The position numbers were made by a program, and so were the translations under genes. A DNA stretch of 37,752 nucleotides. Origin: Deltaproteobacteria bacterium TL4. GTDB lineage: Bacteria > SAR324 > NAC60-12. Numbering within the stretch: position 1 is the stretch's first letter; each line of letters begins with the position of its first letter. The stretch is from contig JBBCAX010000133.1 of the NCBI GenBank assembly GCA_051382335.1, forward strand, positions 1 through 37,752, written 5' to 3'. The notes below the pieces were generated by a model. It was not told the origin of the DNA. It did not search any database and saw nothing but the letters and a program-made list of their open reading frames with translations. Below are positions 35,108-37,752 of this stretch, piece after piece.

Positions 35108-35230
35108 AATAGTCTCCTGACAAAAGGGGATTGCAATTTACGGCTTGGACCATAACTCAATCAGAAACTCAAAGGAATAGACATCTTTCCTAAATAAACG
35201 CTGGATTTTAGCGGGTTTGCAGGAACCCTG

Positions 35231-35567
35231 GCAGGGTGCCACTTAAGCGAAGCAAGCGCGCCACTCAAGGTAGGGTGCCGCTTAAGCGAAGCGAGCGCAC
35301 CACTCAAGGTAGGGTGCCCAAGGTAGGGTGCCGCTTAAGCGAAGCGAGTGCACCACTCAAGGTAGGGGCCGCTTAAGCGAAGCGAGCGCACCACTCAAGG
35401 TAGGGTGCCCAAGGTAGGGTGCCGCTTAAGCGAAGCGAGCGCACCAGAAAGCCGCCATCCCCTTATTTATGGTGCGCTCGCTTCGCTTAAGCGGCACCCT
35501 ACTGGTCAACTCTTATCGACAGCGGCTGGATTTATGGTGCGCTCGCTTCGCTTAAGCGGCACCCTAC
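35231..35567. repeat. GTAG-type REP array: five direct copies, two partial copies and two inverted copies of GTAGGGTGCCGCTTAAGCGAAGCGAGCGCACCA
   Basis: Copies start at 35231, 35270, 35323, 35362 and 35414; inverted copies at 35470-35502 and 35535-35567. Confidence 0.88.
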
Positions 35568-35607: not shown

Positions 35608-36651
35608 TTAATTGAAAACCTCTTCGATTTTTGTCGCGGTTATAATACGTTCCAATAAGAGTTCAATTTCTTCTAAACGACACTGATTGAGTTGACTTTG
35701 ATATAAATTATATGCTTGATCTCCAAACTTTTTCCGTAATAGCCGACCCAATAAAATAATTTCTCCTTCTTCTCGGCCTTTTTCAATGCCTTTTTCAATG
35801 CCTTTTTCAATGCCTTTTTCAATGCCTTTTTCAATGCCTTTTTCAATGCCTTTTTCAATGCCTTCTTCTCGGCCTTCTTCTCGGCCTTCTTCTCGGCCTT
35901 TTTCGATGCCTTCTTCCCTGCCTTTTTCGATGCCTTTTGCCAAGGCTTCATAATAGATTTTGGGGAAAAGTAAGGCGGATACCGATTGAACATCGGGATT
36001 ATCCCTTAAAAAATCTGCTTTGGTATACATATTCGACTCCATGATTCCATAATACTCGATTAAACGGTAAAGGTATCTGCTGATCTCTTCAAACAGTCCA
36101 CGCTCCTGATAAAACTCTGGAAACTGGGTTAACACTTTTTCACGATCATTGGAAAACAAGGTTAACAGCGGATGCTGACTTTGTTGGGTGATTATAAACC
36201 GGACCGGACTCATTGTCGATAGCTTAAGATCATAAATCTCATTTTTTCGGATTTCTACCAGGGACTCCGTTCCTCTAAACGATTTCAACAGTTGAACCGG
36301 TTCATGATGGACCAGCGCGTACAGATTTACTTGCTGTTGAGCCAGTTGATGCTTTTTACGATAATTGGACGCGTGACCATATAATTCTTCTAAAGACACC
36401 CCGATAAACGACTCCCGGTGCGATTTGAAAGAAATCAGATTATGGTCATTCAACGGTTCAAAGGGGTGAAGGTATTCAGCGGGAAGAGTGCCCATCTGAG
36501 GGGAAGAAGAAGTCTTACGAACCACAGTCAAATCGATCAACTGCTTTTTGAACGATAAGTCCACCTCAACTTCGGTTTCATAGCCAAACCGTTCAAACAT
36601 CGGTTGAAGGATCAAGCCCATCAAACGATGCCAATCTATTTTCTTGCTCAT
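35608..36651 (-). CDS. Rpn-like / PD-(D/E)XK-type hypothetical protein with DUF4351-like tail
   Basis: Start MSKKIDWH with AGGAG RBS; ID..V and SFKS putative nuclease-fold motifs; (GIEK/GREE)n; C-terminal L.KKFG...LE.I.......EEVF. Confidence 0.65.
   Translation of the reverse strand: MSKKIDWHRLMGLILQPMFERFGYETEVEVDLSFKKQLIDLTVVRKTSSSPQMGTLPAEYLHPFEPLNDHNLISFKSHRESFIGVSLEELYGHASNYRKKHQLAQQQVNLYALVHHEPVQLLKSFRGTESLVEIRKNEIYDLKLSTMSPVRFIITQQSQHPLLTLFSNDREKVLTQFPEFYQERGLFEEISRYLYRLIEYYGIMESNMYTKADFLRDNPDVQSVSALLFPKIYYEALAKGIEKGREEGIEKGREEGREEGREEGIEKGIEKGIEKGIEKGIEKGIEKGIEKGREEGEIILLGRLLRKKFGDQAYNLYQSQLNQCRLEEIELLLERIITATKIEEVFN
35764..35937 (-). repeat. In-frame 12-bp tandem repeat encoding GIEK/GREE/GREK-type tetrapeptides
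   Basis: Seven consecutive near-identical GGCATTGAAAAA units plus flanking variants. Confidence 0.9.
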
Positions 36652-36770
36652 TTGAAACTCCTTAGGTTTTGGCGCATTACGTTCGCAACATGCATTAACC
36701 ACCCTACGTTTGTCCCTCCTTAAGCGGGTAGACGAGTGTCCGGATTGGTTTAAATGAGAAAGGAAGGGAT

Positions 36771-36917
36771 CACCACGACCTTCCCGTTTAGGTACCAGCC
36801 GTGGTGAATAAAAAAACTATTCGTCCGCTACTGCGGCACAGGATGAACCAGAAGCGGTTCGGGGCATGGGTACAGAGCAGGTATCCGTAAACACCTGCCA
36901 TCAGACAAACGCTCCGG
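36771..36917 (-). ncRNA. Putative DGR spacer RNA, 3' of the template repeat
   Basis: Hairpin GCAGGTGT-TTACGG-ATACCTGC (36877-36898) and stem CACCACGGC...GTCGTGGTG (36771-36806). Confidence 0.55.
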
Positions 36918-37043
36918 GCTGCACAAGCGGGCACCGAGGTTGTTGTTGGTATTGGACGGCGTATTGTTGTTACGCTTCGCCGACCGCACATTCGCGGCGT
37001 CATTGTTGAAACTGCCGCCACGATTCACACGGTTCGAGCCTGA
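36918..37043 (-). ncRNA. DGR template repeat (TR) for a CLec/FGE-sulfatase-fold target
   Basis: Reads SGSNRVNRGGSFNNDAANVRSAKRNNNTPSNTNNNLGARLCS with 12 AAY codons; lies 25 bp downstream of the RT stop. Confidence 0.92.
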
Positions 37044-37068
37044 ATACTCCTGTCACCCTCTTTCCTTC

Positions 37069-37631
37069 TTAAAGCAAATCAAAGCGTTCTTCAAGCGTCT
37101 TGTTAAAAAACTTTTGCCTGAGATGAAAGGTATTGGCCCATTTCAGGGATTCTTGCAGACCATTGACTGACTGGAAAAAATGTTCCTCAGAAAGCGCTCC
37201 TTGTCGCCATTGATGTTCTCGCTCTCTCAGTTTTTGTTCAAAGCGGCGCCATCGCTGTTTTTGCAGACGGATCGTCCCTCGAAAAATCCTGACGCCCAGA
37301 TAATCAATACCCTCTGAAACAGGAGCCAGCCTTGTGGCTTTGGGTTTGAGCGTTAACGCCAGTCGCTCTGTTAGAAACTGCTGGAGTTCAAAATGCAACT
37401 CTTGGAGCTGAGCTTTGCTTTTCGCAAAACACAGCAGGTCATCCATGTAGCGTACATACCCTTTAACGCTCAGTTCGCTCTTGATGAATTGATCCGCCTC
37501 ACTCAAATACAAATTTGCGAAATGCTGGCTGGTCAGATTCCCGATAGGAACACCCTTGCCTTGAGACGCGGAAGCGGGCAGCGGATGATCAATAATCTTG
37601 TCCAATAATTTTAGTAAAAAAAATCCCCGTG
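37069..37631 (-). CDS. DGR reverse transcriptase, C-terminal portion (3' exon or fragment)
   Basis: LLDKIIDH..GKGVPIGNLTSQHFANLYL (DGR-type SQ motif), YVRYMDD, GIDYLG; N-terminal RT subdomains absent. Confidence 0.9.
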
Positions 37632-37752
37632 ATTGAGTAGGAGGAGCCAAAGGCTCCGTCCTCTCACAGAACCGTGCGTACGGGTCTCGTACACGGCTCT
37701 TCATGCCAAACGTATCCATGCGTTTAAGGGTTTCCAGTGATCTAATTGCTGA
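37632..37752 (-). mobile_element. 3' end of a group II intron (domains V and VI), running off the window edge
   Basis: DV GAGCCGTG-TACG-AGACC-CGTA-CG-CACGGTTC with AGC triad and 2-nt bulge; DVI GAGAGGACGGAGCC-TTT-GGCTCCTCCT-A-CTC with bulged A 7 nt before the terminal AAT. Confidence 0.9.

Follow-up and report, generated by a model that had tools for sequence, protein, structure and literature searches.

A group II intron end next to half a DGR reverse transcriptase gene, likely the wreckage of a decayed cassette

Does a group II intron in the sense strand of a DGR reverse transcriptase (RT) gene make hypermutation dependent on splicing, or does it lie in the remains of a broken gene? The question is raised by the window, that is, the whole stretch of 37,752 nt that we analysed, which is the entire contig C133 of a 6.6-Mb assembly in 445 contigs and so leaves no sequence past its end to add. 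A first-pass annotation had read a 216-aa ORF at its end as intron RNA running into a DGR RT and had proposed that hypermutation is either gated by splicing or switched off, with the target variant frozen. Based on our findings, the junction is real, and it likely marks what is left of a cassette in decay, in a genome rich in introns, and not a switch worked by splicing. As found, it adds one more decay route for a spare DGR cassette; were the RT in fact restored by splicing, the locus would be a naturally occurring link between hypermutation and the removal of an intron. The features are collected in Table 1.

Table 1. Features at the intron-RT junction and downstream of it, in window coordinates
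Feature	Position	Strand	Basis or remark
Intron domain IV end, with the final 16 codons and the stop codon of the intron-encoded protein	37701..37752	-	Translation fits the C-terminus of the C237 copy; contig terminates here
Group II intron domain V, short form, AGC triad 37698-37696	37668..37700	-	RF00029, 47.9 bits; fold
Domain VI, bulged A 37638 (-7), 3' end 37632; A at -3	37632..37666	-	RF00029, fold, sister-copy comparison
14-nt junction segment, in-frame x-R-G-F-F, not RT-like	37618..37631	-	Residue counts 0, 0, 0, 1, 0 of 120 homologues
C-terminal half of DGR RT, without stop or frameshift; GNLTSQ 37542-37525, YMDD 37449-37438	37069..37617	-	Homology
Template repeat (TR)	36919..37045	-	12 AAC/AAT codons of 38
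Non-coding segment 3' of TR	36700..36918	-	Common to other DGR cassettes here, 77-82% over ~230-250 nt including TR
364-aa ORF, EKG-type repeats, weak DUF4351 match	35608..36702	-	Multicopy; also after TR on C156
Palindromic REP/MITE-like repeat array	35220..35567	.	Many copies across genome

The intron end and its family

The N-terminus of the 216-aa ORF had been taken for domains V and VI of a group II intron ending at 37632, and both an Rfam match (RF00029, 37701-37632 on the minus strand; 47.9 bits against a gathering score of 40, E 1.3e-7) and the fold confirm this: from these 70 nt a domain V forms, followed by a domain VI whose bulged A lies at -7, with a z score of -6.1 against 200 shuffles. 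Domain V carries the catalytic triad, domain VI has its bulged A and an AY-type end (AT), and the 51 nt on the 5' side of the match encode the final 16 residues and the stop codon of an intron-encoded protein. The same 121-nt intron end also occurs on C405, C431 and C237 at 96-99% identity; since the 3' flanks of these three sister copies differ, the boundary is fixed at 37632. Together with the RT homology described below, the match, the fold and the sister copies bear out a sense-strand intron end adjoining a DGR RT. The start ATG of the 216-aa ORF lies within intron sequence, and the automatic call is a warning: the ORF begins in intron RNA. The C133 copy holds 121 nt only; the GUGYG 5' end and domains I-IV are present in the sister copies on C120 and C431. 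Its base at position -3 is A, as opposed to G in the three sister copies; IIC introns mostly have G there, which improves branching (PMC4748821). Rfam miRNA matches proved to be REP palindromes, and a promoter and terminator scan gave nothing informative.

The intron subclass had been considered unassignable from 120 nt. Through the sister copies it can be assigned as class C-like (IIC-type), judged from best matches rather than from a phylogeny. Pieces of the family lie on 9 contigs, in 6 of which they are truncated or deleted inside the contig. C120 carries the intron 5' end and the greater part of the intron protein, whose N-terminal part is intact and whose best PDB match is the GsI-IIC RT (E 1e-81); the sister copies show RVT_1 and GIIM without HNH, and the C-terminal part on C237 has the maturase domain and no HNH endonuclease. 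A CGC triad is typical of class C introns and is carried by the C-type family that is most frequent in this genome, whereas the triad here is AGC; we therefore file the intron as class C-like only. The class C triad is given as "AGC or CGC" in PMC4424553, and the intron may belong to a C-adjacent lineage (g6, U1 and U2 of PMC8919778). At least 51 intron 3' ends were counted across the genome, 38 of them above the Rfam cut-off, with 150 of 470 candidates scored. Nested or tandem class C-type introns, with 3' ends running straight into another 5' end, are seen at C177:102, C217:475, C400:1514 and C152:165.

Class C introns insert downstream of terminator or attC stem-loops (PMC4424553, PMC8919778). 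All five sister sites of the family have a hairpin ending 4-6 nt 5' of the insertion, compared with 98 of 4000 random positions; the 5' flank of the C133 copy is unassembled. Three of these sites are direct (C120, C431, and C69/C183/C365 counted once), and two were reconstructed: that of C237 via an intron-free paralogue, and that of C405 via a tandem repeat unit, the examined slice being one base short of the site. Judged from the paralogue, the C237 copy lies 5 nt behind its hairpin within an ORF; the 5' half of this intron and the 5' exon of its host gene are both gone. The two intron flanks on C431 do not match each other as one locus. The domain I loop GCUU is complementary to the C431 flank and a sister family carries the matching change, which makes this loop a candidate EBS1. 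The family is further represented by 103-nt 5' stubs (C69:1116-1218, C183:97-199, C365:389-287), which lie within a REP hairpin of the spacer after a DGR target (VR seen on C69); C226 has the intron-free form of the stub site, running on into HRDC. Beside the 5'-truncated copy on C237 lies a long CRISPR-like array (C237:11590-15300) with a period of ~75 nt.

The reverse transcriptase half and the junction

The best PDB match of the RT half is 8ub7 (a 328-aa RT, E 7e-19), which we take to be the Bordetella DGR RT, and the half is 58% identical to the intact RT of C153. Both DGR RT motifs, GxxxSQ (PMC3521204) and YxDD, are present. The RT is not full-length: ~155 N-terminal residues are absent from the assembly. 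What is there is free of stop codons and retains 33 of the 35 columns conserved at >=95%, so any decay would be recent. Codon changes relative to an RT scrap on C60 (12 synonymous and 13 non-synonymous among 76 codons) are uninformative.

RT sequence had been read as resuming within a few codons of the intron, just before GxPIGNLTSQ. Homology does restart close to the intron, at 37617, 14 nt past its end, but 21 codons ahead of that motif. At the junction, 120 full-length homologues have a hydrophobic residue followed by K (116/120) and D (115/120). Read in frame, x being S, P, T or A, four of the five junction codons carry residues absent from all 120, the near-invariant Lys-Asp positions included; the rest of the RT half has 4 never-seen residues in 175 positions. 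The alternative frame, H-G-D-F-F (counts 0, 3, 115, 1 and 0 of 120), is out of frame with the RT. Judged by the homologues, the joining of exons here would in either frame likely yield an abnormal or frameshifted enzyme. The G-rich segment with its T-run resembles half a hairpin or a terminator. A search against the repeat families of the genome matched none, and its placement in a REP family was rejected accordingly; also rejected was the junction as an RT3 motif followed by a 20-codon deletion, a MAFFT placement that scored 3.2 bits and ranked fifth.

We sought a DGR-RT 5' exon in the assembly, and an intronless allele. No N-terminal RT half fitting as the 5' exon was found with tblastn (six relatives) or HMMER (P0001), the N-half profile gave no candidate among 258,305 six-frame segments, and no contig of the assembly terminates in the first bases of the intron. 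No intron-free allele was found either: the best full-length relative reaches 59%, and the best shorter ones, this ORF aside, 54-59%. Taken alone, the absent 5' exon is weak evidence, since contigs below 1 kb were dropped (the smallest has 1008 nt) and the RTs of C68 and C156 likewise lose their N-halves at contig edges.

The dropping of short contigs leaves room for a complete intron with an unassembled 5' exon, the splicing of which would restore a divergent but active RT and make hypermutation splicing-dependent. The frame is open over the junction, the catalytic motifs and domains V-VI are intact, and the N-terminal part of the intron protein is encoded intact on C120, all of which would suit such a gate. 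The in-frame reading, however, loses the near-invariant Lys-Asp; no VR, Avd or 5' exon was found for C133; and the private A at -3 stands in place of the G that most IIC introns have and that improves branching (PMC4748821). With no 5' exon found and junction codons that misfit the family, the splicing gate of the first-pass annotation is not supported: we regard the gate as improbable, and are just as doubtful that the intron at 37632 makes the RT splicing-dependent.

We propose instead that a mobile class C-like intron reverse-spliced behind a DNA hairpin at a break of the DGR RT gene. The gene was probably already being dismantled when the intron arrived, its 5' part would have been lost, and removal of the intron by splicing would likely not restore a working enzyme. 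The intron would be riding along in a spare DGR cassette, one among several, with an intact cassette of the same type on C153. The open frame across the junction and the intact look of domains V and VI are points against decay; we consider the explanation as a whole moderately probable.

The order of events might have been the reverse: the intron may have entered an intact RT gene at a chance coding hairpin and so inactivated it, the junction bases having slipped later. A boundary at the exact intron end in sense orientation and a well-preserved C-half would agree with a direct hit, as would the C237 copy 5 nt behind a hairpin in an ORF and the 42 of 973 positions of the C153 RT gene that follow such a hairpin. 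The frame H-G-D-F-F would even retain the conserved Asp, but it is still out of the RT frame with rare or unseen residues at the other four positions; the C153 gene lacks such a hairpin at the equivalent place, and the 5' exon was not found in the assembly. We consider this course rather unlikely.

Could the junction be a misassembly at a multicopy intron? The assembly is fragmented and has four near-identical intron ends, and the contig ends 121 nt beyond 37632, inside the repeat. The join, however, falls at the exact intron end with no spanning repeat, overlaps between contigs indicate k=127, and the C133 copy has its private base at -3. Contigs in this assembly often stop inside a repeat after <127 nt of it, as do 27 of 40 ends at another repeat, and we rejected the 121-nt contig end as meaningful on this ground. 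A misassembly is highly improbable.

The cassette and its relatives

At 36977-36975 the TR of C133 has AAG, at a position occupied by AAT in six other TRs; the same six have G-F-R where it reads G-A-R. The AAG codon is convertible to a stop codon by adenine mutagenesis; in one of the six others a stop-risk codon occurs at another place. As signs of decay these features are weak. No cognate VR for this TR was found in the (incomplete) assembly: the best ungapped matches have at least 23 non-A mismatches, compared with 2 for the C153 pair, and a search in 50-nt windows allowing <=3 non-adenine mismatches recovered only the TR itself. Avd was found in the assembly on C153 and C387 only, and neither an Avd nor a target gene is linked to C133. 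Of the proposed fates of this DGR, a switched-off RT copy is probable; the freezing of its target cannot be shown because no cognate VR is in the assembly. The multicopy 364-aa ORF (35608-36702) has an overlapping antisense frame and is found after the TR in two DGR cassettes.

The cassette on C153 is intact (FGE-sulfatase-type target, HRDC, Avd, RT and TR), and of the differences between its TR and VR, 22 fall on adenines and 2 on other bases. RT pieces broken within contigs are found on C387, C208, C58, C60, C414 and C216. C54 and C60 match the TR of C156 with 4-6 non-adenine mismatches, which suggests a multi-target DGR that may act in trans. At least five target ends (C54, C60, C69, C166 and C226) have one common VR tail. 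A DGR of a second type lies at C135:17600-20700; its RT frame has 517 aa, and besides a TR there are two VRs, one per side.

The arrangement did not recur elsewhere. Scans limited to their best 80 matches gave 86 related cellular loci, of which 72 have a continuous RT and none an intron match in the RT or cassette (the sole match, at L011, lies outside the cassette), and 80 viral loci, of which 79 have both RT halves in one frame and one is a short fragment. With no second case among the best 80 matches per scan, nothing suggests selection for the arrangement, a further point against splicing-dependent hypermutation. In one viral locus (L154:4062-4132, minus strand), also among the best 80 matches, the RT stop codon is followed after ~13 nt by a class C-type intron end in antisense orientation. 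A close DGR RT occurs in only 1 of 63 genomes of order-level relatives, uninterrupted. DGR RTs broken by insertion elements have been published, and over half of the candidate DGRs in PMC5758913 were discarded as broken or incomplete. We found no report of an intron in a DGR gene, or of a group II intron as the breaker, in the accessible literature searched, which included PMC4143802, PMC11318856, PMC8632793 and PMC8144416. The C133 junction likely has an ordinary cause.

Introns at the variable-repeat boundary and known systems

A stronger lead than the C133 junction lies outside the window. A second intron family has its 3' end just short of the stop codon of a DGR target at C304:403-495 (minus strand) and C387:140-232 (plus strand), at the exact VR 3' boundary in 2 of 8 DGR target ends. 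This intron has a 639-aa frame encoding an HNH protein closest to LtrA. Its flanks start where VR tails part from TRs in other cassettes, and C387 runs on past the intron into HRDC, Avd, RT and TR. A 15-nt motif occurs eight times in the genome, six times behind the stop codon or tail of a DGR target and twice after an intron 3' end (C304, C387); for 51 intron ends, 0.001 such occurrences would be expected. Since the 5' exons on C304 and C387 are unassembled, homing to the VR boundary is something that we infer. No viral contig showed the pattern, nor did any of 87 other genomes from the phylum, and the LtrA-like protein has no close relatives in viral contigs or plasmids.

The DGR of BPP-1 requires a downstream hairpin for efficient homing, which longer spacers reduce (PMC3240598); a multi-kilobase intron at the VR boundary would therefore likely freeze the variant. 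The scheme in which the LtrA-like intron homes to the VR 3' boundary, severs the homing signals and locks the variant, while splicing leaves the protein whole, seems to us evenly balanced between right and wrong. It is likelier than splicing dependence of the RT; that group II introns brake DGRs here in both ways jointly is unlikely. A natural intron that targets a DGR integration boundary would offer a direct test of whether blocking the boundary freezes a chosen variant, and in this respect matters more.

One REP unit occurs only on C304 and C414, so C304 probably joins C414. The C304 end and C414:21215-22600 would then probably be one continuous decayed cassette. It comprises the intron, a VR tail, REP arrays round a transposase that we take to be RAYT-like, and, on C414, an RT scrap (about residues 79-123) that carries a frameshift and is joined to a trpB-like fragment. 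We tentatively suggest, by elimination, that it could be the missing 5' part of the C133 cassette, a proposal that falls somewhat short of an even chance.

The C133 family shares with class C/IIC introns (GsI-IIC; PMC4424553, PMC8919778) a GsI-IIC-like protein, a maturase without HNH, a short domain V and, at its five sister sites, insertion behind stem-loops; it differs in its AGC triad and in its sites, which are REP hairpins and one ORF. As a retroelement inside a retroelement, the junction recalls bacterial twintrons (PMC4424553), which this genome also has, as intron ends followed by intron starts; the host at C133, however, is a DGR RT gene and not an intron. The layout of target, HRDC, Avd, RT and TR on C153 is that of the HRDC-containing DGRs of Architecture C (PMC5758913), whereas C133 holds the RT C-half and TR only. 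The closest likeness in state is to Acaryochloris marina, with an IS-disrupted DGR RT (PMC3521204), and to Thiohalocapsa PB-PSB1, with degenerate DGR loci (DGR 3, 4, 5 and 7) in which transposons have split the RTs or MITE arrays have taken their place (PMC10907252): there as here, several cassettes, intact and degenerate, are broken by mobile DNA amid MITE-like repeats. The breaker there is an IS, a transposon or a MITE array, whereas here it is a group II intron, in principle spliceable.
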